A stretch of 64,000 bases of DNA from the IMG/VR virus record IMGVR_UViG_3300026549_000072. The stretch is one strand, 5' to 3'. Shown piece after piece: positions 19,768-63,929 of this stretch (positions within the stretch are counted from its first letter, which is position 1; each line of letters opens with the position of its first letter). A program made the translations under genes and the position numbers. This DNA is from an uncultured virus (IMG/VR IMGVR_UViG_3300026549_000072). Lineage: Duplodnaviria; Heunggongvirae; Uroviricota; Caudoviricetes. The notes below the pieces were generated by a model, which saw only the letters and a list, made by a program, of their open reading frames with translations, was not told where the DNA came from and made no database searches.

Positions 19768-19938
19768 ATGCTTCGAATTGACAAGCGTGAGGCAGAGTAC
19801 CTGAGAGCGCATGGTGCTTATGTCTCGATGACCAACCGTGGTAAACGTGGTCGTACTAAACATTACTATCTAACTGAGTCACTGAAGAACATGAAGTTGC
19901 ATCGGAGGTATCATGAATCTAAAAAAGCTACCGAGTGA
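19768..19938 (+). CDS. Small basic hypothetical protein
   Basis: GGAG RBS, MLRIDKREAEYLR..., TGA stop; below the ORF-track length cutoff. Confidence 0.65.
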   Translation: MLRIDKREAEYLRAHGAYVSMTNRGKRGRTKHYYLTESLKNMKLHRRYHESKKATE

Positions 19939-21121
19939 AAATGAGGCGCAGTACATCTGGAGATTGTCGTCTGCAAAAGACAGCGGTCTTCTTGATATGA
20001 GTTGGCCTGACCTTTAGAAGATACTGAACGAGGAGCTTGGCTATGAAAACTCCGAAAGCGTATATCGTAAACAGTATGCCGCTGCCAAGAAGTTTCTTGA
20101 TGGCGGATGCTTCCATCGTACCGGCGAAGAGTACCTGAAGGAGCTTGACTCAAAGAAGCGTGCTCTTGAAGCCGAGCGTCAGAAACTGTTTGTAACTAAA
20201 GTTGAGTATAATCGTAACGTAAGACAAGACAGCCGACAAGAACTCTTCTACCAAAACATTGCGGATCACATCGAAAAAATCAATCCGCCTATTAGCGAGT
20301 ATTGCTATGGCGGTGGTGGATTTGAGAATGAGAAGGAATATGTCTTAACTCTCTCTGACATTCATGCTGGTGCAAAGTTTGAGACTGCGACTAACTCCTA
20401 CTCTCTTGATGAGATGGCCGCAAGATTCGGTGTGCTTATCGATGCTGTTGATGATTATGTTCACAAAGAGAATGTGAAGAACCTCAAAGTGCTGTGTCTT
20501 GGAGATACAATCCAGGGTCTCCTGCGTGTCTCTGATTTACAGCTTAACGAAACTTCAATCGTGTATGCGACAGTATACATTGCAAAGAGCATTGCAGAAA
20601 CTCTGAATAAGATTTCGCAGTGGTGTGATGTTGACTACTATCATGTCCCATCTGCTAACCATACTCAGATTCGTCCGCTTGGAACTAAAGCAAGCGAACT
20701 GAAGAATGAGGACATCGAGTACATCATTGGCAACTATATCAAAGATGCTCTTTCTGGCAATAAACATATTCATGTGCATTTAAACTTTGACCGTGAGTAT
20801 ATTGAGGTTCCGATTTTTGATGAAGTCGCAATTGCAATGCACGGTCATCAAGTTAAAGATATTGTTGACACAGTGAAAACTCTTGGATTTGTTAATCGTA
20901 AGTTTTACACAGCAGCGTTCCTTGGGCATTATCATGCATCAGGTCGTACCGTTGCTGGCGAGGATGGAACCAAAGACATTGAGGTAATTGTTTGCCCAAG
21001 CTTTGTAGGAAGCGATCCATACAGCGAAAGCTTATTCAAAGGGGCAAGACCTGCTTGTGGTATGTATGTCTTTGATAGAACTTATGGTTTAATCCGTACC
21101 GATAAATTTGTTTTAACGTAA
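19913..21121 (+). CDS. Calcineurin-like metallophosphoesterase with N-terminal HTH/coiled coil (YonJ-like); 1 in-frame TAG
   Basis: GGAGG RBS; LSDIH, LGD, SANH, HGH and GHYH motifs; TAG at 20015 (codon 35). Confidence 0.8.
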
Positions 21122-21140
21122 ATGAAATGGAGTAAAAGGA

Positions 21141-21440
21141 ATGAACGAAGCTGGATTTAATAACATCCAGGTGCTTCAAGAGGAGCTTCGACTACGAGGC
21201 TACAAGATGAAGCAAGAGGATGTCAAAGAAGTCTATCTAGCTTTCTGTGATATGATTAGAGATTTTGCGAGGAATGGTTTCGAACTGAACTTCCCGAACA
21301 TTGGAAAGTTTGTCATTGTTGAACACAAGCCTCGTCAGCTTACAAGTAATCTCACAGGAGATACTACCGAGCTTCCGCCTCGAAAGAAGCTGAAGTTTAA
21401 GGCAAGCAAGAAGCTCACCGATATGATTAATCGGGGGTGA
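21141..21440 (+). CDS. HU/IHF-like DNA-binding protein
   Basis: NIGKFVIVEHKPRQLTSNLTGDTTELPPRKKLKFKASKKL arm motif. Confidence 0.85.
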   Translation: MNEAGFNNIQVLQEELRLRGYKMKQEDVKEVYLAFCDMIRDFARNGFELNFPNIGKFVIVEHKPRQLTSNLTGDTTELPPRKKLKFKASKKLTDMINRG

Positions 21441-21445
21441 TTTAA

Positions 21446-22762
21446 TTGGGACGCCGACCTAAAGCTGAAGCCATATCTGCTATCACAGGTTACGCTCAGA
21501 TAGACACAGCAAAGAATAATATGATTGCCCAGTTTGATCGGATGAAGCCGAGAGACCAACTGGACTTTCTTAAACGTATTGGTGTTGGCGTTTCAGAGTT
21601 TCATCCTGTGCAGTAGTTCGCTACATGCGCAAAGTGTGGTGAGGTAAAACCTGTAACAGAATTCTATACAAGTACCGAAACTGGTGTTGCGTAGCATATC
21701 ACTCCGATATGTAAAGCGTGTGCTAAAATCGTTTCGTGCGGTATGGATATGAATGGTAATATTCTTCCACCATCAAAGGCCAGCACAATCAATGCTATGG
21801 AGTGGCTGAGAAAGCCATTCATTGAATCAGTTTATTCGCAAAGCATAGCGACATCTAACAGTGGTGGTAAGCTAAATGCTTTCGACACCTATATGCAGCA
21901 AATCTCAAAACAAGCATACTTCGGTCAGAACTTCAGAGCCAACTCAGACTTCTACAATGTCAACAAACCTGTTGTGCTTGAAGAGGAAGAGGCTCCGAAG
22001 TTAGCGCCGGTAAATGAGGATGCTGCAAAAGCTTTTGAAAAGAACAAGTTAGACTGCCAACGGCTGTTAGGATATCTTCCATATGAAAACGAAGATTCGT
22101 CTGACCAGCCGTATTTATATGCAGACCTTGTCAACTTCCTTGGCTCTGTCGAGGATGTAACTGAGAACTTTATGAGAGTACAGACTATGGTCGGTATTGT
22201 CAGATGGTATCTTCAGATTACCAAAATCGACAACCAAATCGCAAAGCTATCACAGCAGAGCATGGAAGCGAATATGGCAACTATCAAAGGGCTTCAGGCA
22301 ACTAAATCCCAGATAGTTGATACCATATCAAAATCAGCAGATGACTCCAAGATATCATTGAAGTCGAACCGGGATAATATCAAAGGTGCGAATACATTCA
22401 CTGGTAAGCTGAGCAAACTCAGAGACCTGAATCTTCGTGCGAGCTACGTCAACGGCTTCGATTTGGAGACCTGCAAAGCAATGCAACAGGTGGCGGATAT
22501 TTCTGATGCCGCCATATTGAAACAGCTTAATCTTGATGAGTCAGAGTGGTCTGATATGGTCGCTGAGCAACGGAAGATGATTACAAAGCTCACGGAAGAA
22601 GCCCACAGTTATCAAGAGGCGGCACGATTAATACTGAAAGAGAACTTAGACTTACGAGATACATTAAAAGATAACGGACTACTCAATGAAGAGGCGTTAA
22701 CAAATCTTGATGAGATAGTCACGAAGTATTGGGATAATGATGACGGAAATCCTGAATCCTAA
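21446..22762 (+). CDS. Zn-finger protein, putative terminase small subunit; 2 in-frame TAGs
   Basis: GGGGGTG RBS with TTG start (MGRRPK); TAG at 21614 and 21692, the second lying between the CAKC and CKAC pairs; located just upstream of TerL. Confidence 0.65.
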
Positions 22763-24830
22763 TATTTACAGTGATGAGATTGCTCAACGTTGTGTGTATG
22801 GTGCTGAGTTTGTTCGCAAACTACTTGGAGTAGAGCTTGGATGGGAAAAGATATACGAACGCCCTCCCGCTCTACTGATGACACACAAACAACTTGAAGG
22901 TTTCATCAAACTGTAGCAACAGCGTGACTACTATCAGCAGAATCCAACAAAGTTTGTCGAAGATTTCTTTCAGATACAATTGATTGACTCCCAGGCATAT
23001 TTATTTCAGATGGCCTGGATTACACCTAGGGTTATTATCTTGGCAAGCCGTGGTTATGGTAAGTCATTATTCATTGACTTATTTATTATGACAAAGCAAA
23101 TGCTTGCGTCTGAACCATGGACTTGTGCTATTGCGGCTGGTTCATCTGACCAGTCTAATACTACTTTTAAGAAGCTCGAAGATATTGCCTATGACCGAAT
23201 CGACTCTATGATTGGTTCAAACGGTAAAATCTTTAGAGACGAAATTGTTATACCAAATGCCAACGGCGATGGGTTCAACCACAACCCGTCTAGTTTTTCA
23301 TATCGTCTTTATAATGATTCAGAAACTAACACTGTAAACTCTAACGTTGATAAGAACAGAGGTAAACGTAAACGAGCTGTATTCTTTGATGAGTCTGGTT
23401 TCTTGGATGCCGATCTCGTCCAGGTCTATAGTGCATTCGCTATCGTTGAAAAGGGTTTTAAAACAGGATTTGATGCTGAAGGTAACGCTATCGATGTGGT
23501 ACGGCTCAGAGCACTCCCACCTGAAGTTCCGAACCAAATCATCAACGTATCGTCTGCATCTAATACCGATACCGATTTCTATGCTAAGTATCGTGACTAC
23601 TCCAAGCGTATGATTATGGGTGACAAATCTTTCTTTGTTGCTCATATTGATTGCGACCTCGTGATGAAGCCTACGGTGCATGGCAAGCGAATGGGTGCGC
23701 TGTTGTCCAGAGACACCATTGATGCGGCTATGCGTACTAACCCTGAGAAAGCTAGACGTGAGTATTACTGTCAGTTTACATCTGATGCTGGTGCAAATGC
23801 TATCATCAGGCGTGGAGTCATTACACGAAATGAAAAGACTTATCGACCCATACATGAAAATCCGAATAATTCAGGTGGTTGGGTAATTTGTTATGATCCA
23901 GCAAGAAGCCGAGACAACTCGATTATACTTGTTGGTCAGATATATGACTCTCCCACTAACGATGGTAAAACTGAAAAGTGTGGACGAATTGTTGAGTGTG
24001 TAAACCTGCTTGACGTTGGTAAGAAAATCCGTAGCCCGATGCAGACACCAGATCAGATTGAATATCTTAAATCGCTCATTGTTGCTTTTAATGGTGATGC
24101 AGATGGATATGGAAATCTGTATGGAGTTTATATCGATGCTGGTTCAGGTGGCGGCGGTGTTAACATCGCAGACTATTTGATGGATGATTGGTATGACAAG
24201 GCCGGTAACTTTCATCGTGGTTTAATTGACGAGGAATATTCAGAGGATTATCTTAAAAAGTTTCCGAATGCAGTAAAGGGGAAGCTTCATCTTCTATCAC
24301 CGAGCAAGTACAAATCAGATATGTATGAAGCTTTAATAGAACTGTTCAACCAGAATAAGATTAAGCTGACTACATCATATGACGGCAGTGGACAATTAAC
24401 TGTATTTGATACAGAGGCCATTGATCTCGCTGCTGAAACCAAGAAGATTAGTGCGAAACTCAAGAAGGAACAACTCAAACCTGAAGAGTTTGACGCTCGG
24501 TTACAAGAGGAATTAGATAAAGTCCAGAATGTCAATTTGACCGTAACTAAACTTGACTGGCTTGATGAGCTATAGCTTACGAATATAGACGCAATGAAAG
24601 AAGAGATTGTCAACATGGTGCGTATTACTCGTGCTTCTGGTAAGGATTCGTTTGAGTTAACACCAGAAAAGCAGAATAAGCTTCATGATGACCGAGCTTA
24701 TTGTTGCGCTGAGTTTGCTTATGCTCTCATGACAGCAAGACGTTCACATCTTACAGAACGTAAAATAACACAACCATAGACGCTCATTGACCGTATGTCA
24801 GTGAGAAAACCTCAAATACTAAGGAGATAA
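22737..24830 (+). CDS. terL: Terminase large subunit; 3 in-frame TAGs
   Basis: Walker A SRGYGKS, Walker B VFFDES, nuclease motifs YDPARSRD and IDAG; HDDRAY lies beyond TAG 24573; TAGs at 22914, 24573, 24777; TAA end. Confidence 0.9.
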
Positions 24831-28260: not shown

Positions 28261-28737
28261 ATGACTAATATTGAAGCATTCCTTGCCTCCATCAGTAAGC
28301 ACGCTGTCGCTGAGTAGACCAAGATTAAGGCTACCGAGTGCGGCCATATTTTTAACCTGAAGGCAGACAAGGATTATGACAATGGTGTTGTTGTTGCTAA
28401 GAATGCATACCTTGAGGATGATGTTTATTCTGTGAAGGATTCCACTGATTTTGCAGGAACGATTGTTGATGTCGCTGCTAATGGGAACTTCATTGTCCAT
28501 GTTGTTGACCCGGGTGATGGTCTGCTTGTTCTGACTCCGCCTTTCTCTTATGTTACTGAGCCGTCTCGCTTCGCTGCCGAAGATCAGTTTTATAATGCTC
28601 GGAACTCCATCATGAGAGCTTACGAGCTTGTCAAGGATGACGAGTTCGCTGTTTCTGCTGAGGGATTTGATACGAATCCTTCAAAGGGTCAGACTGTTAC
28701 TGTTACCGCTACTACTCGTAAGCTGCACACCGCATAA
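28261..28737 (+). CDS. Putative capsid decoration/auxiliary protein; 1 in-frame TAG
   Basis: AAGGAG RBS; TAG at 28315 (codon 19); located between scaffold and MCP. Confidence 0.7.
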
Positions 28738-28757: not shown

Positions 28758-29861
28758 ATGAGACTTACATTTGATAATGCTATTATCTCCTCTACTTTCG
28801 ATGATGAGGAGCAGTTCGAGGGATTTAAGTCCCTGATGTTTGAAGCTGGCAAGAACGAGTTTTCTGAGTCCAGCATGACTCTGGCTAAGGCTAATAAGAA
28901 AATTGCTGAGGTCTTTGCTGAGATGACCGGCCTTGAGGCTGGCAAGAAGTACAGCAAGACCGAAGTCCGCAGAGCAATCCGCAGAATGTCCAATGACCCG
29001 GTTTGCTTCGACCTGATTGAGGAGGTTCTTGACGACCTCATTACCACTGGCTGGGAAGAGAATCCGTGGTTCAACGAGTTCGTTGAGAAGAGAAACCTTG
29101 CTCTTGGTGACCTTCCGACTTTTGTGACTGAGGATGATACCATCCTTGCTGTTGAGAAAGTTGCTGGCAATCATCACGACCTGCGCAGACAGCGCCTTGG
29201 CGTTGGCACTGCTGTTACTCCGGCTACCGCTTGGTATGGCGTGAAGGTCTATGCTGAGTTTGAGCGTATTCTGACTGGTCAGGAGGACTGGAGCAAGCTT
29301 GTCGCTAAGGTTGGCGAAGCTTTCGTGAAGTTTGTTGTTGACTTTACCTACAGTGCTATTCAGCAAGCTGTTACCAGAATGTCCACCGAGGCTAAGTTCC
29401 ACAATAGTGGTTCTCTGAGCTATAAAAATGTTATTGCTCTGGCTGGAGAGGTCGAGGCTGTTAATGATGGTTGCGAAGTCATCATCATGGGCACCAAGGC
29501 TGCACTTGCCAACCTGTATGCTATTGCACCGGCTCAGTGGATTTCCAATGAGATGATGCAGGAGCGCAATCAGACTGGTAAGCTTGGTATTTGGCAAGGC
29601 TACAGACTGGTTGAGATTCCGAACCGCTATACCGATAAGTCCCTGACCACGAAGCTGGCTAAGGATGACCAGATTATGTTCATTCCTGTTAGCGCTGACA
29701 ACAAGCTTGTTGCTATGGTTGACGAGGGTGATGGCATTGTGACCGAGATTAACGACCAGGCTCATCACATGGATATGACCTATGACTACGAGTATCAGCG
29801 TAAGATGGGCTTCGCTCTTCTGCTTCGTAGAAAGTTCGGCGTCTGGGATCAGATTGTTTAA
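28758..29861 (+). CDS. Major capsid protein (TAG-free)
   Basis: 367 aa, GAGGAGG RBS, strong codon bias, position after scaffold/decoration genes, followed by a terminator. Confidence 0.8.
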   Translation: MRLTFDNAIISSTFDDEEQFEGFKSLMFEAGKNEFSESSMTLAKANKKIAEVFAEMTGLEAGKKYSKTEVRRAIRRMSNDPVCFDLIEEVLDDLITTGWEENPWFNEFVEKRNLALGDLPTFVTEDDTILAVEKVAGNHHDLRRQRLGVGTAVTPATAWYGVKVYAEFERILTGQEDWSKLVAKVGEAFVKFVVDFTYSAIQQAVTRMSTEAKFHNSGSLSYKNVIALAGEVEAVNDGCEVIIMGTKAALANLYAIAPAQWISNEMMQERNQTGKLGIWQGYRLVEIPNRYTDKSLTTKLAKDDQIMFIPVSADNKLVAMVDEGDGIVTEINDQAHHMDMTYDYEYQRKMGFALLLRRKFGVWDQIV

Positions 29862-33754: not shown

Positions 33755-34588
33755 ATGATTCTGAAGAATCTAATGATCGACCGTGTTATCGACCTTACCG
33801 ACTATGACAGATAGACCGGCCTTCGTCGTTTTACACTGCCTGAAGTTCAGGACTTCTAGATCAATGTGACTACTCAGGAAGATGAGATTACCGATGCTAC
33901 CGGCTCTCCCATTGCTATTCTTGAGTCTGCTAAGTCTGCTGAGTTCTCTGGCAACTCTTCTTTCACCAACCTTGAGCTGCTTGCTTATCAGTCCGCAGCC
34001 GATGATAACATTCTTACCAAGAACATCGAAGATATGGAAATCATCGAAGTGCTGACCATTACCGATGGCAAGGTTACTCTTGCTCATACTCCTGTCGGTA
34101 CGACTGGTGAGGAAATCGAGTATGTCTACATTCGTAACTCCGATGGTACGAGTGGTGATTATATGGAACAGGGTACTGAGGCTGCTGCCGCTACCTCTTC
34201 TGCTAAGGCTAAGTTTGCTCTTGGAACTAACACTGAGAGCGGTAAGTCTGAACTGACATTTGACAGCTCTCTGAACGGCACTTCCATCTATGTTGACTAC
34301 AAGTTCAATGCCACCTCTGGTATGTACTTCGAGTCCCTGGATGATAAGTTCACCACTTCTTCCAAGATTGTTGTCCGTGTCCTGTGCAGAAACGTGTGTG
34401 ATGATAACCAGGTTACCGTGCTTGCTATCGTCTGCGAGAACGCTAAGCTGTCCTCTGCTTTCGATATCAGCTTTGCAAGATCTGAGACTCATCCGTTTAC
34501 CTATCGAGTCATGCCAGCTTACTGCGGCACCTCTGGTAAGTCCCTGTACAAGATTTACGTGCTTGATACCGACGACTACGCTGAGTAA
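33755..34588 (+). CDS. Major tail (tube) protein; 2 in-frame TAGs
   Basis: GGAGG RBS; TAGs at 33812 and 33857; beta-rich, strong codon bias, followed by a terminator. Confidence 0.75.
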
Positions 34589-45000: not shown

Positions 45001-48000
45001 TGAAGCAATTGATAGTTTCAATAAAGTAATTCAAGGCGTTAGTGGAGAAAATAAAGATCGCATACTTGGATTATTTAAAGATCTTTATCCTGTATTGTAT
45101 GCAGAGGCTGAGAAATGGGAATTTAAAGTACAGATAAAAGCGGATGATGGTAAATTAAAAAAGGACATCAAAGAAAAGATTGATGCGATTTCTGCCGCTG
45201 TTGGTCATACAGTTACCCAGGAAGAACTCAGTAATTGGGATGAAAGTGTTCATAACCCAAGTGCGAATACTGCATATGGCGCTTACACATCCCTCCTTGG
45301 TCAATATGGAATGGGCGCTCAAACTGGCAGTGAATATGCGGCACAGGCAGGAGCCTTAAGCACTGATAATCTTGAGGAGCTTAAAAGGCAAATAAGCTCT
45401 ATAAACGATGACATCTTAGAAGACATTGATGAAACTATTCTTGCTGCTGTCAAAGATGTAAATGGATTACCAAATAAATTTAAATCTATTTATAATCGAA
45501 TTCGTCGTAATTTTGATAATGATACAGATGCTATTATTGCAACATTAAAACTAATTCCTCGTGAGGCTGAAAAAGCTGGTAATCAAACAGAAAAGAGTTT
45601 AAGTGGTCTTGACTTATCTGATACTGCATAGCACTTAAATAAGTTAGCCGAAGTAATTGGTAAGATTCAGGATAAAGGCACAGTTCCTTATACCACACTT
45701 GGCGCTAAAGATTTTGAAGATGCATTTGGCAAAATAGATGATTCTACTGGAGAAGCTAAAAAAGCGTATGATGATTTCATGAAGACTGTATCCTCTACTA
45801 AGGATATGGATGAAGTTATCGACAAAGCCAACAAGCTTGCTACAGCATATTTTAATAATAGCGAATAGATGAAAAAGCTCACAGCTGATAATGCTGTGTT
45901 TGTTGAAGGTATGCTTAGCGAGAATGGTGTTTCAAATGCACACGAAGTTGTTGCTGCGGCTTTAGCAAAACAAGCTGCATCAGCAGAACTTGCGGCATGG
46001 AATGATTCTCAGCTTGAACAAAATGAAGTAAATCTTCGTGATGCTACATCTGATAATATTGAAGTTGGTCTTGAGAATGCCGCTGCATTTATTGCACAAA
46101 AAGATGCTGCTGATCCTGCAACCGCCGCACTTGCAAATTTGATGTTCCAAGAGGCAATGCTTAGTGGTGCAGATATTGATACGACTGCGGCTCAAGCATC
46201 GCTTCAAGCGTTAGGTCAAGCCGCTGGTATGTCTGCGGCACAAATTGCCACTGCTATTTCATTAATGAATGCGGCTTCAAGCGCCGCATCAAAAGCTGCT
46301 GTTAAAGCTAAAGCTGCTGCGGCAAATGCTGGTAAAAATCCTCGTGGAAAGGATGGCGGTGTCGTATGGGGTTCTGAAGAATGGAATGCTCAAATGGCCG
46401 CTTACAATCAGGCTAAACAAGCTGAAAGTATTGCAGAAATGAATGCTAAGATGCTTGAAGATTTAAAGATTGAGCCTATTTAGACTGGTAGTTCTGGTGG
46501 TGGCGGAGGTGGCGGAGGAGGTGGCAATAAAGAGCCATCGAAAACCGACAAAGAATGGGACTGGGCGGCTCGTAAAGCTGAACTCCTTCAGCGTGATAAT
46601 GATAGACTTCGTGAGGCAGTCAACAGCGAGTATGTAATCCTTCAAGACCGTAAGGCCAACATTGTAGATTATAATAAAGCGATGGAAAAGCTGGAAGATG
46701 TCAAGGGCCAGCTTACCGCTATGGGTGTTGATGTTGAAGGTGAAGAGTTCCAGAATCTTATAAATACCATTGACCTTAGCGGTGCCGCAGATGATATTAC
46801 GAGCAATGTTGATAGTATTGAAGGCGAATATGCGAAGATAATAGACCTATCCGATGAGGCGGCTGTTAAAGATTTCTTTGGTGTTAGCGGAGAGGGCGAA
46901 GGTGCTATTAACCGTGAGATTCAACTCATGGCTCAGTATTCCAAGATTATGGATGAGCTTGCTGAGACTTCTGATTATGCATCTAAGACTCTCGATGAAA
47001 ATGGACGTGGTAAGTTATCCATTATTGAAGATTTAATCGAGTCTGATAAACAGCAAATTGAATTCTATAAACAGCAGAAAGCACAATACGCCGCTGAAGC
47101 TGAAGGATATAAAGAAGAAATCCTTAAAGCTTTCGATAAAGATGAAGCTCTACAATGGATTAAGGATATTGAAGAGGGTAATGTTAACCCAGAAAAATGG
47201 GAGCAGTTATCTACCTATGATTCTAATGACCAGAAGGCCAAAGATAAATACGAGTCTGTTGATCGTATGCTTAAGGCTAAGCAGAAGGAAGAAGAAGCTG
47301 ATGATAACATCCACAAAAAGATGCTACAGCTTGTTGAGGATGAACAAAACCGCTTCCAAATTCAGCTTAACATTGTAAAAGCCAAGCAAGAAGAAGTTCA
47401 ATCGCTGATTGATGAAGCTCAACACGAGCTTGATATGAAAGAGATTCTTGGCGAGGTTGTTACTGAAAGTGATTATCAACATCTTATTGACCTTAATGAC
47501 GATTTAATTGCTTCATATCGTGAGCAGATTGATATTCTTCGTGACCAAGCTGATGAACTTGATGAGGGTGAAGGTGCTTGGTATGATGTTCAGTCTCAAA
47601 TCAGAGATTGCGAATCTGCTATTCGAGACGCTGTCAAACAGCAAGCTGAGTGGAACGATACCATTCTTCGTATGCCTGTCGAAAACATTTCTCGCTTCTT
47701 AGGTCTTATCAAGAATCTTGGTCAGACACTAAAGAACTGGTTATCTGTAAATGATGCCAAGGGTATTGCTCAGAATGCAGAACAGATTCAAACCTCTTGG
47801 ACTACCGCTTACGACCAGATTGCCGATGATGAACTTGGTCTTATGAAGCAACTCGAAGACTACGAAGAGCTTCTTGAGAATTATGACTTAGGAAGCACGA
47901 AGTTCTCTGAAGTTGATGATGAGATTCAAAGTGCAAGAGATTCTGTTGAATAGCTTGTTGAGGAAATGATTGAGCTGAACAAACAGCTTCTTACTATTCC

Positions 48001-49554
48001 TATTGATAAGCTTTCAGAGATGACCACCTATCTTGATGGTACACTCTCCGACCTTCAGTCTATCCAGTCCGAATATGAGACAACTATCAATACAGTTATC
48101 GACCTTATCACCGAACAGCAAGATAATCTTGAGGAAGAATATAACGAACTTGAGAAGTCAATCGAAGACCAAATCAAACCTCTTCAGGATCAGCTCGACC
48201 TACTTGGCAAATAGAATGACCAGAGAGACCGTGAGCTTGCCATCGAGAATGCTTTATTTGAACTTGAAAAAGCTCGTGAACAAAAGACCGTTCAGGTTAT
48301 TCGTGATGGTCGTGTACAGTATGAGGTTGATGAATCTGCCGTAAGAAATGCTCAGCAAGGTTACGATGATGCTCTTTATAATAAACTTACCGGCGACCTG
48401 CAAGATAAGATTGACGACCTAAATGACCAGCTTGAAAAAGCTCGTGAGTCTACTGATGACCAGGTTGAAGCTCTTGAGGATATGAAGAAGAATCGCTGGG
48501 AGACTATCATCCCAGATACAGAGCGTGCAAGGAATGAGGAAATTGCCACACAGGTATTTACTGATTTGTTCGGCGCTACTAACTGGAAGGAGCTTGTTCT
48601 TGCGGGACAGGACGCTAATGGTGTATTTGCTGATGAAGCTATATACCAAGGAATGCGTCAGAGCTACGGAACCAATTCAGAACAGCAACGTGATACTCAG
48701 CGTCAGATTGATATCAACAACATAATCACCGAATCGCTTACTCGTTTAGTTGAAGACTTCCAAGCAGATAAGATTAACTCTGAAGAACTTTCTGCTAAGG
48801 TCTCAACACTTATGAACTTCGTCAACGATGGGTTAATCACTGGACAAGAACGTCTTGAGAATACTCTCTCACTTGGAGATTACTCTAATCTTGGTGCGGC
48901 ATTAACAGATGCAAGTCGTCAACGCAACGATCAGATGGATATCTTCAATGAGAATCTCGCTATCGCTCAGGAGAATAGAGACCAGGTCAACGAACTTATT
49001 GGACGCTGGGATGATTTCAAAGTCTGGTACGATGAAACGTATAAGCAACTTTACGAACAATATAAGCTATTGACTTTATTGGTGATACTGTTGCTAAATG
49101 GCGTGATGATTATGACGATGATGATGGTGCTGAATATGGTGGCATTTGGGAGGGAGAATCTCGAAACCCCGATGATTATCGTGGCGATGCAAGTTATAAT
49201 GATGTTGGTCATTATGCTGATGGTTTGGAAAAAGGATAGATTGGAAGCCTTCCGTCTTCAGAGCGTTTTAAAGCTATCCAGGCTCTTGGTCTCAAGAAAC
49301 TTGACCCAGACGAGTTCCCAGCTATTCTACATCTTGGTGAAGGTGTAATCAATCCGAAGCAACAGTCTACGATATTAGGTAATCTGCGTCAAGCATTAGC
49401 GCTTGGTGGCGCTGGAACAGGAGCTGTCATACAAATGTCGTTTGGTGATATTACTCTTCCGTCCGTTACTAACGGACAAGACTTTGCAGAGTCTCTTGCG
49501 GCTCAGTTCCAACCTGCTATGAACCAAGTGTTCTAGAAAATCTTTAGACGTTAA
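39008..49554 (+). CDS. Tape measure protein (about 3500 aa); about 21 in-frame TAGs and one -1 frame break near 49065
   Basis: All ORF-track fragments from 39113 to 48482 are in one frame and are joined only by TAG; TMP core (AVSNNYAVTAADIGNALKRSASAM, SLRIRGAKTEL); the C-terminal HYADG..PAILHLGEGV continues in the -1 frame to TAA 49552. Confidence 0.85.
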
Positions 49555-50185: not shown

Positions 50186-50205
50186 AAAGGAGGATTGATT
50201 CAAAG

Positions 50206-50379: not shown

Positions 50380-50391
50380 GGAGAAAAAGGA

Positions 50392-50664
50392 ATGAACAAG
50401 AATTATGAATCTTTTAGAAACGGCATTATGTACGTTATGAGAACTAGCGGGCTTGAGCTTGGCGCTATCTTCTATGTTTTAAAGGATATCCTTAGAGAAG
50501 TTGAAGAAATGTATTCTAACACTATCCGTCAGGAAATTGAAGAGGAAGAGCGTAGACAGCGTGAGGCTGAAGAAACGAGAAAGACTGAGGATGAGGCTAA
50601 GACTTTGCCAGACCCTGAATTCGAAGACGTACATGTCGAGGCTGATAATGACGCAAAGCTATAA
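50392..50664 (+). CDS. Hypothetical protein
   Basis: 90-aa ORF with RBS. Confidence 0.65.
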   Translation: MNKNYESFRNGIMYVMRTSGLELGAIFYVLKDILREVEEMYSNTIRQEIEEEERRQREAEETRKTEDEAKTLPDPEFEDVHVEADNDAKL

Positions 50665-50917
50665 CGATATTATTCAACAAATAGCTGAGATTATTACCGA
50701 TACCGTACATAAAGCTCTCGCATCCGAGGGTGAGTATGATAGAACATATACCGCATTTGTAGTTGAGAAAATCGGCGCAAACAAATATACCGTAGAATAC
50801 AATGGAGGTCAACATACGGCGAGATCTAATATCTCGCTGTCGGTTGGCGATATGGTTATGGTATGTTCTCCATGTAATAACGACTCGGCTTTATTTGTTG
50901 TTACAAAGGTAAGCTAA
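50648..50917 (+). CDS. Small OB-fold-like tail/baseplate protein
   Basis: YDRTYTAFVVEK..YTVEYNG..LSVGDMVMVCSP. Confidence 0.6.
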   Translation: MTQSYNDIIQQIAEIITDTVHKALASEGEYDRTYTAFVVEKIGANKYTVEYNGGQHTARSNISLSVGDMVMVCSPCNNDSALFVVTKVS

Positions 50918-50918
50918 A

Positions 50919-52196: not shown

Positions 52197-53134
52197 TGTT
52201 TTTAGGAACATTGCTGTGTAGTGGTGCTCCGAAGTACTAGATGTATAGCGGTTTAAATGAAACCGCAACATACGAAACGCTCAAGTATCAAAGCACAACA
52301 ATAGATGACATCTACGCATCGGCACACATACTACACGATTTTGATTGGGTACTCCCGAATAACTGGGATTACCATATTGTATTACATGCTATGTTCACCA
52401 ACGGAGATATGAACGCAGGTAACGCCATATTCCGTGATGCAACAAAGATTATGTTAAAGAAACGTATTAAAGGAACTTTCGACTGGAAGACAATTTACAT
52501 TCGTGACATTAGCACAGAGATACAGAACAGTCTTCAAGCGTTGAATATAGAGTACGATGATTATCTGGAACCAAATAAGAAAGATATTGAATACGCATAT
52601 ACTGCCATTATTGGCGGCAAAGAAACTGACCCAGTGCTCGCTGACACATCTTCATTCTTCTATTGCTATTATCTTGTTGGACAGTATCAGGATGGTGGTG
52701 AACAGCCGCATTATCCTTGTATGTTTAATATATCTCATCAGTTATCTCTACATCGTCCGTCCGCCACTGTAATATCACCAGGTTCAAAGTACCCATATGT
52801 TGTTAATAATGGTTCAACAAAATATTATGGTGGAAACTTTAGTGTGACGTTTATGCCGCATGATGACGAGATGCTACCAATACCAGAGCACGGTGCTACT
52901 CTTCGGAACACGATTGATGAATTTTTAACAGATGGTTACCCGAAGATTCTCAAAACTTATGATGGCGATATTTATATGGCTGCTATTACTGGTGATATCT
53001 CTAGAAATAATGGACAACACTATCAGAATATCGGTCAGTCATGGGAGTGGGTAGAGGTTGGCGATCCAAACGACTGTGGTGACTTATATGATTATGGGTT
53101 TATAAATACTGATATAGGTCGAAGCGGAGGTTAA
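52196..53134 (+). CDS. Distal-tail/baseplate-like protein; 1 in-frame TAG
   Basis: TAATG coupling; TAG at 52238 (codon 15); FLTDGYPKILKTYDG and WVEVGD motifs. Confidence 0.7.
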
Positions 53135-55470: not shown

Positions 55471-58400
55471 GTGCCTATTTCATTTGGTGCGGGTTCAGAT
55501 AGTCAGAACACATCCAGTGGTTCTTTGACTGCTGATTCCAATGAGACCTATACCAGGCTCTCTCAATATAATAGTACATGGTATCCTGAGTACACAGATG
55601 AAAACACTTTCACTGTTACTTAGACAAAGAATGTCATAACGTCTCAGGATCATCCGAACTTAAGTCAGGAAACAAACAGTCAGTATATACCATTCGTAAT
55701 GCCAAGATTCTATGATGGTATTGACCTGACTAACATGACTATTCAAATTCATTTTGTCAATGCTAATAATGATGATTTCATTGCAAACCCAGTTAATGTT
55801 GAGGCCAGTGAGAATCATATAAGATTTGGATGGCTCGTTGATGAGCGTGCAACTGTAGCGGCTGGTAAGCTTCAGTTCGAAATCAAAATCTTTGGTGTGA
55901 CATAGAATGGTTTAACATATATTTGGAGAACACGTCCGAACTCCGCTCTTGTTGTTGAGAAGTCTTTAGAGGGCAATGGATTTATCCAACCTGAGAACTA
56001 TACAGATTGGTATACCACGTTTGAGATTGCAATGAATACCAAGGTTGCAGATGCTCAGGCGGCGGCGAATACTGCCCTTGAAGCAGCGGCGGCGGCTGAA
56101 GAGTGGGCATCCTCTGTGGATGTTTATAGTAAGAGCGACATTGATGAAATGTTCGCAGAAACGAAGAGCTTATCTAATCTTGGTGCAGAATTTACAGGTG
56201 GTGCGCTCGTTTTATATGATAAGAGCAAGCTTAGAAGTGACCCTGATTTTGTTATCGCTTCTGTAGATAACATTGATACTCTGAATAAACTTAGAGTTGT
56301 TTTTAATCGAGATGATAATACTGGAGACTCATCATTATCGTTTTATGATGATGAAAATTTATTAAGTACTGTTGTGCTTGATTTTACGCCTAATGTTGAG
56401 TGGCAAACAGAGTTTGCTTCGGCTGTTGGGACACAGACAGATTCTAAGATTTAGGCATATAATACCAATACGGTTCAACCAGCTCTATCTGCTATTAATA
56501 GTGACCTCACATCAATTCATAATAACATTGATAGTCTTCCGCAGACGCTTCAAAGTGATTATTATACAAAGGCCACTGTTGATCAGAAGATTGCTGATGC
56601 TATGGAAGACGCTGTTGATGAAAGTGAAATCAATTCTTTAATTTCTACTAATCCTACTGTTACAGGAATTCAGAGTAGCATTCGTAGCATCACTGAAGAT
56701 GTAAGTAATGCAACGTCTCGTGTTGACGATCTTGATGACGCAGTTGAGAATCTTCGCAATAACATTACATCTCATAATGTGTATGATATTGCGTATAATG
56801 ATAAAACAAATGAGCTTTCATTATATGAGAATGCAGATCCGACTGATGAGTCTGCTATTCCAAAAACGAAAGTAATCATTAAAGGTGGTTCTGGCGGATA
56901 GTCTTCTGGTTCTACCCTTACCATTACAAGAATCACTCCTGATACTGTTATGGCTAAGAGTGATGTTGAATCTATTTTGATTCAGTATAATTTCACATCT
57001 GTAATGGCGGATGGTGATACCAACTCTATTACTGGTACTGCGGTATGGAAAGTTGGAAGCACAACTGTGGCGACGGAGACAAATCTTTCCCAGGGCGATA
57101 AGAGCTTTAATATAAGACCGTACCTTACTGTTGGAACAAACCTTGTCACTCTCTCATTTACAGATAGTGAAGGAAGCATCTCAACTAGAAGATGGACTGT
57201 TACACTGATTAATTTTAACATCACAAGTTCATTCAATGATGCGACCACATATGATACTGATATAGCGTTCAGATATACTCCGAATGGTAATATCTCAAAA
57301 GTCGTTCATTTTGTGCTTGATGGTGAAGAGATAGATACCGTAACAACAAACACGACTGCAAAACAGCTTACATATACGATTGCAAAACAATCTCATGGTG
57401 CTCATCTTCTTGATGTGTATATGACTGCTACGATTAATGATGTTCCTGTTGAAAGTAATCACATATATAAGGATATCATTTTCGTAGATGAGGCCAATAC
57501 CACCCCGATTGTTGCAACCGCCGTTAGAAGTATTAGCGCAAAGCAGTATGACACCACAGCGATTTAGTATATTGTTTATGATCCGCTTCATAACCCAGCG
57601 ACAGTAGAACTAATTGTTGACGATGATGTTATTTCTACGCTTTAGGTTGATAGGACATCTCAGCTTTGGAGTTATAAGACGGGTTCTGTCGGAGAGCATA
57701 CGTTAAAGATTCGTTGCGGTGAAACGTTCGTTAGTATTAGTGCGACCATCGAAGATATTGGTATTGATGTTGTACCGATTACCGACAATCTCATGTTTGA
57801 CTTTAATCCATCTGGTATGTCAAATGCAAATACTAATCGTATTTGGACAGACGGAACATATCATATGACAGTCAGTGAGAATTTTGACTGGGCTAATGGT
57901 GGATACCAGGTTGACTCAGATGGCGATACATATTTCTGCGTCAAAGCAGGAACGACTGCAAGTTTTGATGTTCCTCTGTTTGGCGATGAGGCTAAGACAT
58001 CTGGTAAAAACTTTAAGTTTGTTTATCGCACAAACAATGTCAGAGACTATGATGCTCATGTATTGAGATGTATGTCTGGTGGTATTGGTCTTGAGATGAA
58101 TGCACAGAATGCAATCCTTCATTCTCAACAGAACTCTATCGAGGCTCCATATTGTGAAGACAATTTCATGGAGTTTGAATTCAATATTTTGCCATCAACT
58201 CATTATAGAGAGATGGTTCTTTGGATTGATGCAATTCCGACAAGAGTTAAACTCTATGAAACAACTGATAGCTTCACACAGATTCCTACTGTCCCGATTA
58301 CAATTGGTTCTGATGATTGTGATGTCTGGGTTTATAGGATGAAGTCTTACTCTGTGTATCTTGAGGAAGATGAGATTCTTACGAACTTCATTGCTGATGC

Positions 58401-61400
58401 TAAGAATGCAGAAGAAATGATAAACCGCTACAACAGGAATAATATCCTGAACGATGCCGGTGAGCTTGATCCAGACCTACTTGCAGAGAGATGCCCAGAC
58501 CTTAGAATTATTAAACTCTCCGCTCCGTATTTTACAAACGACAAGTATAACAAGGTGTCTAACACTACCGTCCAACATATCTACAAGAATGGTCGTGCTG
58601 TTGAGGATAACTGGACTGCAACTGGTGGTGTTCATAAAGGACAAGGTACGTCATCTAACTATTACGGCGATTCTGCTCGTAATATTGATATAGATTTCCG
58701 CAAAGCATTTAATGAAGAAGCTGGTACTGGATTTAGATATGGAGACAACACACTTCATGCTAAGTATGCTATGACGCCAAATTCCGTCGAGGAAGCATAC
58801 TTTAATATAAAGCTAAATGTTGCATCTTCTGAAAACGCAAACAATGCTGTCATTGCCGATGACTATAATACATTCAATCCGTATGTCAGACCAGCTCGTG
58901 CTGAGAATCCAAAAGTAAGAGATACAATGGAGTTCCATCCATGCGTAGTCTTTATTCAGGAAAGTGACCCAGACCTTTCTACTCACAGAGAGTTCCAGGA
59001 CAACAACTGGCACTTCTATGGTTGCGGTGACTTTGGTAACTCCAAGAAGAATAATGGCGCTATGGGTATGACTGATGATCCGAATGAGTTCATCATGGAA
59101 ATCAGCAATAATATCAATGCTCAGTGCAGGTGGTTATCTGATGACCTATCCACAGAAACATGGGGATTAAACGACCAAAAGGCTGTATCGTTTGAGTTTA
59201 GATATATCAAAGACGAAGATGATTCAGAGATGATTGCAAACGCTCAGGCTGTGTGGCAAGCAAATCTCACATGGGTTGTCAATCAATACAAAGCTGATGT
59301 TATTGGACAGCTTGCGACTCTTGATGCGGCAATTGAATAGGCAGAAACTCCAGAAGCTATTACTGCCGCTACTGAAGCAAGAGATAGTTATATATCTAAC
59401 TTCAAGTCCGAGTTTGAACAGCGCTTCCAAGCAAATAACCTTTGCTATACATATTTGTTTACTGAGCGCCACATGATGATTGATAACCGTGCCAAGAATA
59501 CATTCTGGCATTATGACCCGACAACTGAGCTTCTTAGCTGTACGTTTGACTATGACAATGACACAGCTGAAGGTAACGATAATGAGGGTGGTTTGACTCT
59601 TCGTTATGGCCTTGAAGATACTGATACTATTGGTCAGAAGGATGTTTATAATGCGGCTGATTCTTATATCTGGAAGCTTGTAAAGAACTTCTACCGTGTC
59701 GATCTTGCAACGATGTACCGCACTCTCGAAAACAATGGTGCATGGTCTGCCACAAGATTCCTTAATAAGATTGAGAGCTATCAGAACGTTAAGCCTGAGA
59801 GACTTTGGATTTATGATATGCAGAGAAAGTACTTCCGTCCTTACGAGGAAGGTGGCATAACTGAGGAAACTGACAGCAAGCCGAGTACAACCGCATATCT
59901 TGAGATGATGCATGGTTCAAAGAAACATCAGCGCAGACAGTTTGAGAAATACCAAGAGAAGTATATTGCTTCTAAGTATATTGGCGTTGCTGTAACTTCA
60001 GATGTGCTAACGCTTAGAACATATACGCCTGAAGTATGGTCTGGTGTTGCGCCGTCAACCACATTCCATATTACTCCATATGCTGATACATATATTGTCG
60101 TAAGCTATGGTGGAACTCAGGTTCAAAAGCGTGCTGTACGTGGACAGGAATATACTATTAGTGCACCTCCTGGAACGAGAGTTAACGATACTGAAACATA
60201 TTGCTATAACGCTTCTATGCTTTAGAGCCTTGGTGACCTTTCAGCTTTCTATCCAGGCTATGTTAACCTTGCTGGTGGTGTCAAACTTAGAGACCTTTTG
60301 ATTGGTTCTGATGAGACTGGGTATTCCAATACAAACTTTACCGCTGTATCTGTTTCAACAAATCCATTGCTTGAAAAGCTGAATCTACAGAATCTTCCGA
60401 ACCTTGCGATGTCTGTTAACGTTGAAACATGTGTCAACATGACGGAGCTTCTTGCTGATGGTTCTGCTATTACTGGTATCGTTCTTCCGACTGGTGGTAA
60501 GATTAACACCGTTCACCTTCCTGCAACGATTACTTCATTTACAGCTAAGGGATTGAACTACCTTACTAGCCTAACGATTGATGGTTATAGTAACATTGCA
60601 ACCATCTCAATCGACAACTCTCCTTCTATTGATTCGTATGCTATGTTTATGGCATGTAATAATCTGAGGGTTGCAAGATTGATTGGTATTGATTGGAACA
60701 TCACAGACGATACCGAACTTGAGCGGTTATATAACTTAAGTGGTCTTGATGAGAATCACAATAGTACATCTAGAGCTGTAGTCTCTGGTACTGTTCACAT
60801 TACCACGACTCGTGAGCGTAACCTTGCGAAATACACTGAGGCATGGCCGAACCTTACAATCACTTATGATAATATGATTCGTCAGTTTTCTGTCGCATTT
60901 TATAATGCTGAGGATGCAAGTGGTACAAGTGCTCTACTTGATATTCAGTATGTCGATGTGAATAATTACCCAGAAGACCCAGTTACTCGTGATGTTAATC
61001 CAGTGACTCCTACGCTCGACCCTACTATCAGTACTGTTTACACTTATGAGGGTTGGGATCGTGAAATCTCCGCTGTTACTGGTAACCAGATTTACACCGC
61101 AGTTTACTCTGAATCTCCGAGAACTTATACTGTGACTTATACAAATGGTCATGGTACTGTTCTTCAGAGAACGACTAACTGTCCGTTCGGTGCTTATGTA
61201 CCTTATATAGGAATAAGCGGTACATACTCTGAGAACATGTCTGTTCCTACAACTGGAACTGGTTATACTGCGCTTGCTGAGTCAAAGCAAGCTATTATAC
61301 CGACATACACCACTGGCGAAGCGGCGAACAGTTATTATCTGTTTACTGGTTGGGATCAGTCTGGATATGTCAGCGGATATACGAATGCTGAGCAAACAAC

Positions 61401-62805
61401 GATTGGCGACAAGACTATTAACGCTTTGTATGATACATTTGCATACACTTCAAGCGGTAGTACTAATTCATTTACAGATGAAACAGGTAAGTATAAGTCA
61501 CTGAGCACTCTTACTCCTGTCGAAATTTATGCAATGAAGAAGCTTGAGGCTAAGTATGCTGTAAATGTAAATGACGGCGATGACGATGATAGTGATGACT
61601 TTATTGCTATCGGAGACGAAATTGCAATAACTCTTGGTAACGATATTAACTTCTCTGATGTTGAAAGCCATGAGTTTGTTACACTTTCTCAGCCGTTTAC
61701 TATGAATGGTAGAAACACAAAGATTGATACTGCATCTATCGGTAGTCATTTACCATACGCAAAACTTCTTGCGGAAGACAGAGATTTTGTATTCGCATTT
61801 GAATACTATCTGAACTCTTCGAGTAATTCTGGATCTGTTTTGATGCAGTGCTTCGATGACTTTACCAAAACCGGATTGCAGATTAGTACTACTGGAATTA
61901 ACTGGTTTGGCACATCTGTCAACGCTGTGAATGTTAACACTAGAGATATTATTGTCTTACGTCACAGAAAGGGCGATAAGAAGCTTTATGTGTATAGCGG
62001 AAATTTAAGCGGTTCTTCTGTGGCTTATACTGAGATTACGAATAGTACAACTGCTACGACCGTAGATACAGACGTTGTATTTGGCTGTGCGAAATATGTT
62101 TCTTCTACGTCTACAACATATGATAGCTATGCTAATGGAACCATATATTGGGCAAAACTTTGGAATGCAGACCTTGGCGACGCTGTGTGTAGAGACCTTG
62201 CGGCTTGGACTCATGAGACGATGAATTTCAAAGTCGCAAAATATAAAGACTACTACACACCAGAAAGAAGTAAAGCCTTATTCACCTTCATCGCTGTAGA
62301 GCTTCTTCCATATAAGAAGGTGCTTGGTGCATATAATTGGCCTTCCGCATCTCTCAATGAGTATTTACAAAAGAGATTGTATTTTGCTATGCCGATTGAA
62401 TGGCAAGCGATTATGGCAGAAGTATTGCTTCCGTCCTGGGATGGTTATGTGACTACTACAAACCCAAGAGGCCAGACTGTTGTTTCAAAGTCTGAAACCA
62501 TTACAAACTCAAACGCTTATATATTTATTCCATGTGCGGCAGAGGTTGATAGCACTGCTGGTAATGATTTACTACTTTCAAGAGAGTGCAATAATGGTAT
62601 GATTAAATTCATGTCGACTGCATCAAATCTTGTTGGTAGGTATGCAGATGGATATGGCGATAATTATTGGACGAGGTCTTGTAGCGCAAGCTATGCTGAC
62701 TTCATAGGTACTGTAACTTATAACGACGATTCTGATACTGCATCTGTAAGCTATTGGGAAGGTTATTCCAACTCAAATGCTGTCAGAATTATGTTCTCGA
62801 TTTAA
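55471..62805 (+). CDS. Giant (about 2440 aa) tail/adhesin protein with BppU-like N-terminus, CotH-kinase-like domain, LRR-like region and DUF6273-like C-terminus; 8 in-frame TAGs
   Basis: AAGGAGGTG RBS with GTG start; single frame joined at TAGs 55621, 55903, 56452, 56899, 57565, 57643, 59338, 60223; QGTSS, MIDNRAKNTF and YDNDTAEG motifs; YWTRS near the end. Confidence 0.78.
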
Positions 62806-62810
62806 TGTTT

Positions 62811-62835
62811 GGGGCGGCTTCGGTCGCCCCTTTTT
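62811..62835 (+). terminator. Intrinsic terminator
   Basis: GGGGCGGC-TTCG-GTCGCCCC followed by TTTTT; near-identical to the hairpin at 25041. Confidence 0.75.
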
Positions 62836-62845
62836 AGGAGTTTGA

Positions 62846-63157
62846 ATGTTTTATAAGATAACGAAAGACGGACGTGTTATAGATGTCATCGATTAGATTG
62901 TGTATGTAAGATATGACAAACGGCACGATGACATACATATCTGCGAGCCAGAAAACGCAAATGCATTTCTCTCCTCTGATCGAAGAAGTTGTTGGAGGGT
63001 ACGGTAGATGAAGCTCAGCGATAAGGTCTTTGACACTGTTGAGCTTAGCGAAATTACCGAACAGGAATATCTCCAACTTCGTGCGCTTAATATGAAAACG
63101 CCAGAGGAAATCATAGACGCATATACTCTCGCTCTTATTTCTGGAGGTGTAATATGA
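62846..63157 (+). CDS. Hypothetical tail-fibre-associated protein; 2 in-frame TAGs (absent from the ORF track)
   Basis: AGGAG RBS; TAGs at 62894 and 63005; TPEEIIDAYTLALISGGVI C-terminus. Confidence 0.7.
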
Positions 63158-63294
63158 GTCAGTTTGTTGAGAGCTTAGCTCGGCTTTACAGCCAAAAACA
63201 AATTACACAAGAAATGGTGAGGACACTTTTTACAAAAGGAAAAATCACGAGTTCCGAATTTGTCTATATCACCTCTTCTAAGGAGAAGTCATAA
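63154..63294 (+). CDS. XkdX-like small protein
   Basis: MSQFVESLARLY..KGKITSSEFVYIT; GGAGGT RBS. Confidence 0.6.
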   Translation: MSQFVESLARLYSQKQITQEMVRTLFTKGKITSSEFVYITSSKEKS

Positions 63295-63929
63295 TGTATA
63301 CGATTATTGTTAATAATGATAATGTGCTGGACAAAACTAATGTCGAGCGTGTTATGTGCAAAAGTAAACTCGTGAATAATATGCATTTTCTTGTGCCACT
63401 TATGTACGATTAGATTAGTATGGATGGATTTACTGCCGTACTTGAATATCGTCTTCCTGTGAGCAAGGCGTATCATACCGAGATTCTTGTTGTACAACCA
63501 GAGATTTACAAGGATGATTATCTAGAATATCGTTTACCGTTTGATACAAATTTAACGGCAGAAGCTGGTGAGATTGAATTACAGCTCACGTTTACTAAAG
63601 CCATTCTTAATGATGATGGCACAACAACTCAGTATGTTAGGAAGACTCTTCCAACCTAGATTGTAATTACGCCGATTGCATCCTGGGCTGATATGATTCC
63701 TGATGCCGCACTTACCGCCCTCGACCAGAGGATTATTGCACTTGACCTTGCTCAAGAACAGCTCGCTCAGCTTGCTCAGCTTCTTAACACAGGTAAAGCT
63801 GATAATGTTGTTATCGAGGGTGACCAGCTACAGCTTACTTCTAATGGCGTTAAGATTGGCGATGCTGTTACTGTTAATCAGATTTACAATATTAACACGA
63901 CTGGCGAACTGAAGGTGGTGGAGATTTAA
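63294..63929 (+). CDS. BppU-like tail protein; 2 in-frame TAGs
   Basis: AAGGAG RBS; TAGs at 63411 and 63657; LTAEAGEIELQLTF. Confidence 0.7.

Follow-up and report, generated by a model that had tools for sequence, protein, structure and literature searches.

Amber codons in the late genes of an uncultured siphophage from the cattle gut are very probably read as serine

We analysed a stretch of 64,000 nucleotides (henceforth the window) from an uncultured member of the Caudoviricetes (IMG/VR record IMGVR_UViG_3300026549_000072). The window covers some 64 kb of the DNA of a large Bacillota siphophage from the cattle gut, with a genome of roughly 150 kb as judged from a relative that we refer to as G001. 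Many of its late genes contain in-frame TAG triplets, and the sequence comparisons described below indicate that these are, with high probability, read as serine, which would make TAG a rare seventh serine codon (55 TAG triplets versus 957 standard Ser codons in the late genes). An initial annotation, made from the letters of the window, had proposed that TAG encodes serine and not glutamine, and this proposal is sustained because serine emerged as the best fit from three kinds of evidence: the residues found in the corresponding columns of standard-code homologs, the sense codons that recoded relatives carry opposite TAG, and the build of a tRNA with anticodon CUA in a relative.

TAG as a sense codon in the late genes

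Under table 11 the plus strand of the window is, from 19.9 kb onward, a run of broken frames. When TAG is read through, a normal late-gene block is obtained in which the packaging, portal, head and tail genes contain 1 to 4 TAG triplets each. With conservative gene starts, all 55 in-frame TAG triplets lie within 31 late genes (13,995 codons) on the plus strand between 19.9 and 64 kb, and these genes also hold 535 Gln codons. Of the late-gene models, 30 were closed at a stop codon, which is TAA in 23 cases, TGA in 7 and never TAG. Eight further TAG triplets (22716, 30877, 36366, 36474, 37123, 37144, 37788 and 52238) were left out of the count because they precede probable gene starts or fall where genes overlap; the triplet at 28740, upstream of the ATG of the capsid gene, was left out as well. 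The 14 coordinates quoted in the initial annotation all correspond to TAG triplets in exactly the contexts given there. The frame of the tape-measure protein (39008-49348) extends over 3446 amino acids with 19 TAG triplets read through, and a frame of that length without TAA and TGA should not arise by chance given the density of stop triplets in the window.

The minus-strand early block (1-14.2 kb) is without convincing in-frame TAG: the in-frame triplets seen there are confined to short upstream extensions, and the single one of the 26 listed minus-strand open reading frames that ends in TAG is spurious and overlaps a longer gene. The early block is thus readable under either code.

Genes that fall into pieces under table 11 might also be pseudogenes, split genes or the product of assembly errors, with the TAG triplets acting as real stops. 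This explanation is refuted by the present results, and we leave it virtually no probability: the homology to relatives continues uninterrupted and in frame across the TAG triplets (in G001, in the loci L144 and L145 and in more than 100 standard-code loci), 18 of the window TAG triplets are TAG at the same codon in G001, the genes are interrupted by TAG only and never by TAA or TGA, and the DNA of the window was recovered in sequencing runs of 13 studies, nearly all of which are labelled bovine gut. In the late genes TAG is a sense codon and never a stop.

Residues opposite TAG in standard-code and recoded relatives

The capsid protein of the phage shares at most ~30% identity with that of cultured phages, namely siphophages of Bacillus, Lactococcus and Clostridioides (70 records). 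Among uncultured phages 162 related capsid proteins were found, with 209 relatives in IMG/VR and 183 in the metagenome collection, and the best 80 of the 209 and the best 80 of the 183 were fetched. The genome bins that contain members of the family are mostly those of Clostridia and Bacilli; members in bins labelled Prevotella, Bacteroidales and Kiritimatiellae are possibly mis-binned phage contigs and were not taken as evidence on the host. Locus L002 lies within the 151,909-bp record G001, and L001 is nearly the same phage. The window aligns collinearly with the part of G001 between 79.6 and 148.7 kb, at a nucleotide identity of ~80% in the head region and 66-78% elsewhere, and the loci L143 to L146 are further members, with a capsid identity of 71-89%. 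In a quick IQ-TREE analysis based on 99 distinct capsid sequences, from which L145 and L146 were left out as too short, the window, L143, L001, L002 and L144 form one clade on a long branch, with 100% support in the SH-like approximate likelihood ratio test (SH-aLRT). Among the 78 IMG/VR loci L003-L080 repeated in-frame TAG triplets were restricted to L070-L073, and the remaining loci read normally. The loci L219, L220 and L192 were considered as a third recoded lineage and rejected, as their apparent in-frame TAG triplets are off-frame artefacts rich in Leu.

The residues opposite TAG were collected from tblastn alignments in which TAG was entered as X, a choice that favours no residue, against 147 standard-code loci with identical segments collapsed. 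Candidate residues were then scored with a substitution table derived from the sense-codon positions of these alignments. A tabulation based on Pfam was not possible because few matches were obtained: 8 of 27 proteins (25 from the late block, plus the RNA polymerase-like and the Bro/antirepressor proteins upstream of it) matched a family, with PhoH, ClpP, RuvC, PhageMin_Tail and DUF5048 among the late ones. A 553-aa protein of the baseplate region gave only 2 matches in 30 related genomes, and therefore ten tail regions were fetched by coordinates; the tail columns are thin, with 1-8 homologs per site.

Serine obtained the best score in each of these comparisons. The log-likelihoods were S -48.0, A -49.8, T -51.3 and Q -56.4 in a first run over 19 sites (control 1071/1080); S -50.8, A -52.5, T -53.6 and Q -59.3 for the 147 loci at 20 sites with at least 8 homologs; and, with the ten tail regions added, S -105.9, A -109.8, T -112.4 and Q -114.1 at 39 sites with at least 3 homologs and S -70.0, A -73.3 and Q -78.7 at 27 sites with at least 8. 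In the window columns serine is thus ahead of alanine by 1.7-3.9 nats and ahead of glutamine by 8-9 nats. The 20 TAG sites of G001 itself gave a similar picture (S -48.1, A -51.3, Q -58.4). The mean share of a column was 0.055-0.075 for Gln versus 0.19-0.24 for Ser; the columns are not dominated by Gln. In a calibration with resampled sense-codon sets of equal size the correct residue was called in 1111 of 1120 cases; out of 500 sets each, Ser was called for 494 true Ser, 3 true Ala, 1 true Gln and no true Thr or Gly sets, and with the tail regions added it was called for none of 300 true Gln sets. The same procedure yields tyrosine for another recoded lineage (G002, see below) and therefore does not default to serine.

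At the level of individual sites (Table 1) the initial annotation was only partly right. Among the 11 sites it had described as Ser-like, serine is indeed the commonest residue in the homologs at four (28315, 33857, 33168 and 31322) and ties at two (37237 and 56899), but at the other five another residue prevails (K at 33812, D at 43352, R at 43409, T at 57643 and E at 55903).

The second comparison was made codon by codon between close relatives that are themselves recoded: a sense codon that stands opposite a TAG of the other phage is expected, in most cases, to specify the synonymous residue. The TAG triplets of the window face S 9 times, A 6 times and Q 3 times in G001, next to others, and those of G001 face S 8 times, Q 5 times and K 4 times in the window, again next to others. 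After removal of 9 doubtful sites and one paralogous match of 32% identity, 55 pairs with G001 were retained (S16, A8, Q6, K5, D4, T2, V2, G2, N2, E2 and six singletons), for which the log-likelihoods were S -152.4, A -178.0 and Q -190.5, so that serine leads alanine by 26 nats and glutamine by 38. The 29 pairs with a local identity of at least 7/10 (S12, A5, Q3) gave S -70.7, A -93.0 and Q -112.5. Serine was also found in 6/12 pairs with L145 and in 4/11 pairs with L144. The 16 Ser partner codons in the G001 pairs are TCA (7), TCT (5), TCG (2) and AGC (2); as 14 of these are more than one step away from TAG, the serine signal is not an effect of mutational neighbourhood. Among the Q, K and E partners the codons CAG/CAA, AAG/AAA and GAG prevail, as would be expected from single-step mutation into TAG at sites that tolerate serine. 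Two sites may serve as illustration: 24573 is TCA in G001, and 28315 is TCC in L144 and TAG in G001, L143, L145 and L146.

The comparisons also bear on glutamine, the meaning that NCBI table 15 gives to TAG and that applies in crAss-like, Lak and further recoded phages of the gut. Glutamine is the usual phage reassignment according to the Borges preprint and Cook 2024, it accounts for 6 of the 55 G001 pairs, and it fits at a few sites: two of those that the initial annotation had flagged as tolerant of Gln turned out to be so, with Gln in 8/8 standard-code homologs and CAG in G001 at 60223, and CAA in G001 at 55082. Yet glutamine falls behind serine in both comparisons by the distances given above, only 1/500 and 0/300 resampled sets of true Gln codons were assigned to Ser, the Q, K and E partners would be accounted for by single-step mutation from CAG, AAG and GAG, and the CUA tRNA of G001 described in the next section is not of the Gln type. 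We consider glutamine exceedingly improbable.

Another small residue, alanine or threonine, has to be weighed as well. On the distant columns alanine comes second and threonine third, 1.7-6.5 nats behind serine, and there are columns that consist mainly of Ala (20015, 22914 and 24573) or mainly of Thr (21692). The pairs from close relatives, however, place serine 22-26 nats ahead of alanine and 30-44 nats ahead of threonine, at most 3/500 of the resampled sets of true Ala or Thr codons were assigned to Ser, and the features of the CUA tRNA do not agree with either residue. This leaves alanine or threonine as a very improbable reading, and serine as the residue that we assign to TAG.

tRNAs with anticodon CUA and the decoding of UAG

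The tRNA that could be responsible for this reading was found in G001, where 11 tRNA matches are clustered at 49999-52521, on the same strand as the early genes and some 27 kb ahead of the region that corresponds to the window. Among these ARAGORN reported Leu(UAG), Asn, Ser(UGA), Met, Thr, Pro, Gln, Met, an unusual tRNA whose anticodon loop measures 8 nt, and a tRNA(CUA). The latter is 87 nt long (51797-51883) and scores 52 bits on RF00005. Its acceptor stem comprises 7 bp, with G1-C72, U2-A71 and G3-C70, and it has a G30-C40 pair, a 6-bp variable stem and discriminator G, and its D-arm is almost the same as that of the neighbouring tRNA-Ser(UGA), to which it is 64% identical. Pairwise identity over the whole sequence does not separate the isotypes (best Ser 0.64, Tyr 0.61, Leu 0.61), and the length of the variable region and the discriminator were therefore used instead. 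The variable region measures 17 nt, where the 33 distinct class II tRNAs of related phages have 15-20 nt (Ser), 10-14 nt (Leu) and 11-14 nt (Tyr). The discriminator in related phages is A in 7/7 Leu and 5/7 Tyr tRNAs and G in 0/14 Leu and Tyr tRNAs, and it is G in 9/19 Ser tRNAs, the other 10 being one family with an ambiguous register. The Giege review (PMC9976931) states, in the part that concerns us, that serine identity resides in the variable arm and does not depend on the anticodon, and that G73 blocks the leucyl- and tyrosyl-tRNA synthetases. Judged by its long variable arm and G73, the G001 tRNA(CUA) is predicted to be of the serine type; a long-arm class II tRNA with G73 is not of the Gln type. 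The G3:U70 pair is an identity mark of alanine, and Ala and Thr tRNAs lack a long variable arm; since the tRNA(CUA) has G3-C70, the alanine mark is ruled out.

Several other tRNAs deserve mention. The G001 cluster contains, on the minus strand, an ARAGORN tRNA with a four-base anticodon 'gggt' at 52363-52435 (L092 7364-7436; 36 bits on the Rfam tRNA model) and, at 50690-50779 (L092 5691-5780), a 90-nt Pro(GGG) tRNA with a 10-nt insert that was reported in intron mode only. In several standard-code relatives (among L003-L222) the tRNA-Ser(UGA) occurs as 10 distinct sequences with an ambiguous acceptor register that possibly comprises 8 bp, which may recall the 8/4 'allo-tRNA' serine tRNAs of phages.

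G001 gave no match to a release factor (PF00472) or to a class IIa synthetase core (PF00587), and the lack of the latter fits with charging by a host enzyme. No match to a ribozyme of the hepatitis delta virus-like (theta) type was found beside the tRNA(CUA), and the tRNA-Thr is located only 2 nt away. A scan of IMG/VR with the 19-nt anticodon arm recovered 5 stretches (G001 itself, an unrelated 74-nt CUA tRNA in a 299-kb contig, and three without a tRNA) and hence no further carriers. The contigs of four sequencing runs were also compared with the G001 cluster, and the matches listed were mostly tRNAs of other organisms. A contig of 3061 nt from run X13 spans the tRNA(CUA) stretch with 4 differences from G001 in 134 nt, and a contig of 4527 nt from run X1, the probable source of the window, has 7 differences from G001 (L092 6242-6278) in common with it. 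The two contigs give a hint that the window-type phage possesses the tRNA(CUA).

Taken together, the following mechanism can be envisaged. Outside the window, in a group of tRNA genes, the phage would possess a tRNA(CUA) of the serine type, and the seryl-tRNA synthetase of the host, being blind to the anticodon, would charge it with serine. The charged tRNA would then compete with release factor 1 (RF1) at UAG, and the TAG-bearing packaging, head and tail genes would be translated to full length only once the phage tRNA is present. The early genes avoid TAG and would be readable by a naive host, an arrangement that may serve timing or regulation.

A different tRNA appears to be used in another part of the family. 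The loci L070-L073 belong to a complete record of 129 kb (G002), which is also recoded. The column test over 20 of its sites favoured tyrosine (Y -49.6 versus H -58.6 for the next best), and on the gene strand Tyr is the commonest residue at 11/16 sites (e.g. 17/17, 50/52, 19/19 and 24/24). A CUA tRNA was not found in G002 by ARAGORN or Rfam. A motif scan recovered an 84-nt sequence on the minus strand (68004-68087) that forms a five-arm cloverleaf when folded alone. Its anticodon loop reads CUCUAAA, the variable stem has 4 bp, the discriminator is A and the T-loop is unusual, features that characterize it as a candidate class II tRNA of the Tyr or Leu type. In the capsid tree the G002 lineage is far from the serine clade and placed among standard-code phages, and the two reassignments therefore look independent. 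Within the tRNA cluster of G002 two weak matches to the YrlA (Y RNA-like) family were also seen on the minus strand (64044-64170 and 64214-64318, or L134 4044-4318; 34 and 30 bits versus a gathering score of 69).

We thus consider it reasonably probable that, in a Bacillota siphophage family that mostly uses the standard code, TAG was captured at least twice independently, as Ser in the clade of the window and as Tyr in G002 (L070-L073), by means of a long-arm class II tRNA(CUA). If true, amber recoding in phages would be a general lock on late genes that can be operated by any tRNA whose synthetase tolerates CUA, and not a 'Gln code', and public table 15 translations would be wrong at each such site.

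Various observations weigh against the serine assignment. The lead of serine over alanine is small when measured against distant homologs, the sites 60223 and 55082 look like Gln sites, and 43352 and 43409 are D and R, respectively, in 23/25 distant homologs, yet 43352 is AGC (Ser) in G001. In the close relatives (G001, L145 and L144) serine makes up only 26/78 of the residues opposite TAG. A suppressor tRNA was not found in the window by intron-aware ARAGORN or Rfam, and the one described here was taken from a relative that has diverged by ~20%; the pieces of the X1 contig, among the matches listed, end at L092 6359 and so stop short of the tRNA(CUA) gene. The acceptor pair 2-71 of this tRNA is U-A and not the G2-C71 of the E. 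coli tRNA-Ser.

Alternatively, the phage of the window might decode TAG differently from G001, or in a mixed fashion, by partial read-through against RF1 or with more than one suppressor. The source of the tRNA in a relative and not in the genome of the window itself would be in line with this, as would the tyrosine lineage, which implies that the meaning of TAG can vary among relatives of one family, and the failure to find a release-factor gene in G001 that could remove the competition. Against it, the TAG sites of the window give serine without any contribution of G001, and the window and G001 share the 18 TAG positions and the fully supported clade mentioned above. We regard differing or mixed decoding as improbable and retain serine as the probable meaning of TAG.

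Gene context and comparison with known systems

The features of the window and the residues found at selected TAG sites are collected in Table 1. The start of the terminase-like gene was placed by eye at MMTEIL and is provisional, as the codon reads ATA; its three TAG triplets are well inside the gene. In the tape-measure gene the window is 1 nt short with respect to G001 near 49066: the end of the 3446-aa frame appears to be out of frame, and the last ~160 residues are found in the frame 49066-49554. Errors of assembly, a genuine mutation and a programmed shift are all conceivable as the cause. Directly upstream of the tRNA-Asn and the TAG-bearing late genes, the plus strand encodes a TAG-free protein of 925 aa (16777-19554) with a weak match to RdRP (PF05183) and a DCDGD motif, which looks like a single-subunit RNA polymerase of the YonO/crAss type and may transcribe the late genes. 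A lone Bro-N/KilAC antirepressor-like gene (15309-16265, plus strand) is located between the early block and this polymerase-like gene.

Table 1. Annotated features of the window, positions of the in-frame TAG triplets, and residues opposite selected TAG sites in standard-code homologs
Feature	Position	Strand	Remarks
Early gene block	1..14206	-	no convincing in-frame TAG
tRNA-Asn(GTT)	19645..19718	+	single tRNA found in the window
Late-gene block (packaging, head, tail, tail fibre)	19913..63929	+	holds all 55 in-frame TAG
Large terminase-like packaging protein	22734..24830	+	TAG 22914, 24573, 24777; named by position and our own reading, no Pfam match
Head protein, upstream of major capsid gene	28261..28737	+	TAG 28315 at an invariant Ser column
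Major capsid protein	28758..29861	+	no TAG; anchor for fetching relatives
Putative tail tube	33755..34588	+	TAG 33812, 33857; label from the initial annotation, no Pfam family match
Tape-measure protein	39008..49554	+	Pfam PhageMin_Tail match; 19 TAG, plus 2 in the last part
Tail fibre / host-recognition protein	55471..62805	+	2444 aa; 8 TAG including 60223
TAG positions, part 1	20015, 21614, 21692, 22914, 24573, 24777, 25137, 26911, 28315, 30552, 30585, 30690, 30810, 31322	+	
TAG positions, part 2	33168, 33812, 33857, 35157, 37237, 39050, 39110, 39311, 40004, 40178, 40286, 40427, 40877, 41123	+	
TAG positions, part 3	41225, 42314, 43352, 43409, 44699, 45629, 45866, 46481, 47951, 48212, 49237, 49534, 50955, 54896	+	
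TAG positions, part 4	55082, 55621, 55903, 56452, 56899, 57565, 57643, 59338, 60223, 62894, 63005, 63411, 63657	+	
TAG site	20015		A 23/27
TAG site	21692		T 36, S 11
TAG site	22914		A 34, S 26
TAG site	24573		A 46, G 16, S 3
TAG site	28315		S 77/77
TAG site	30810		G 52/67
TAG site	31322		S 46, A 15 (of 61)
TAG site	33168		S 46/72
TAG site	33812		K 22/46
TAG site	33857		S 48/52

In the literature the recoding of TAG in phages is mostly equated with glutamine. Passages of the Borges et al. preprint report only TAG-to-Gln and TGA-to-Trp, those of Kienbeck et al. 2024 give predicted suppressor tRNA isotypes for Gln, Trp, Ile and Tyr and not for Ser, and TAG recoding is treated as table 15 in the corresponding parts of Cook et al. 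2024, the phAss-1 paper and a 2026 survey of jumbo phages. The initial annotation had spoken of no more than rare mentions of TAG as serine, and this agrees with what we found: a passage in a 2015 review (PMC4695839), according to which phages whose UAG is reassigned 'to Ser and Gln' and which encode Gln- or Ser-tRNA(CUA) as well as release factor 2 (RF2) were reported by Ivanova et al. 2014 (Science 344:909). A phrase search of the literature for phage papers on TAG, UAG or amber to serine, or on Codetta and serine, retrieved none. The reading of TAG as serine in phages is therefore of a known kind that has largely been forgotten, and the present phage is a further member.

Tools for the detection of TAG recoding render the codon as glutamine under table 15; if the assignment is correct, such a translation puts a wrong residue at the 55 sites of the window, including columns that are Ser in every homolog. 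The serine case would revive an almost forgotten report from 2014 in the face of recent surveys that, in the parts cited above, give only Gln for TAG, and the serine and tyrosine cases together suggest that what a recoded stop stands for in phages depends on which tRNA scaffold is available; serine readily suggests itself here, as the seryl-tRNA synthetase does not read the anticodon. The G001 tRNA(CUA) would be a natural and presumably efficient serine amber suppressor for Bacillota.

As far as the passage in PMC4695839 goes, the phages of Ivanova et al. share the codon, the amino acid and the kind of tRNA with the phage described here, but they are said to encode RF2, and no release factor was found in G001. 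The TAG-to-Gln gut phages (crAss-like, Lak, Garnet/Topaz and phAss-1) are, in the published descriptions, similar in that TAG is concentrated in late structural genes and is not used as a stop, that the phage has a CUA tRNA of its own (here in the relative G001) and that the host presumably uses the standard code. They differ from the present case in the amino acid, which is serine here, in the predicted tRNA, which is a serine-type tRNA of class II in G001, and in the theta ribozyme, for which no match was found beside this tRNA.

Serine amber suppressors are also known from the laboratory, i.e. supD of E. coli and psu1+ of T4. They resemble the proposed system in that they are tRNA-Ser species with a CUA anticodon that are charged with serine because the seryl-tRNA synthetase ignores the anticodon (for the principle see the relevant part of PMC9976931). 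They are, however, single mutations selected in the laboratory, whereas the phage system would rely on a natural, separate tRNA gene, only 64% identical to the tRNA-Ser(UGA), and on 55 TAG codons that appear to be adapted to it.

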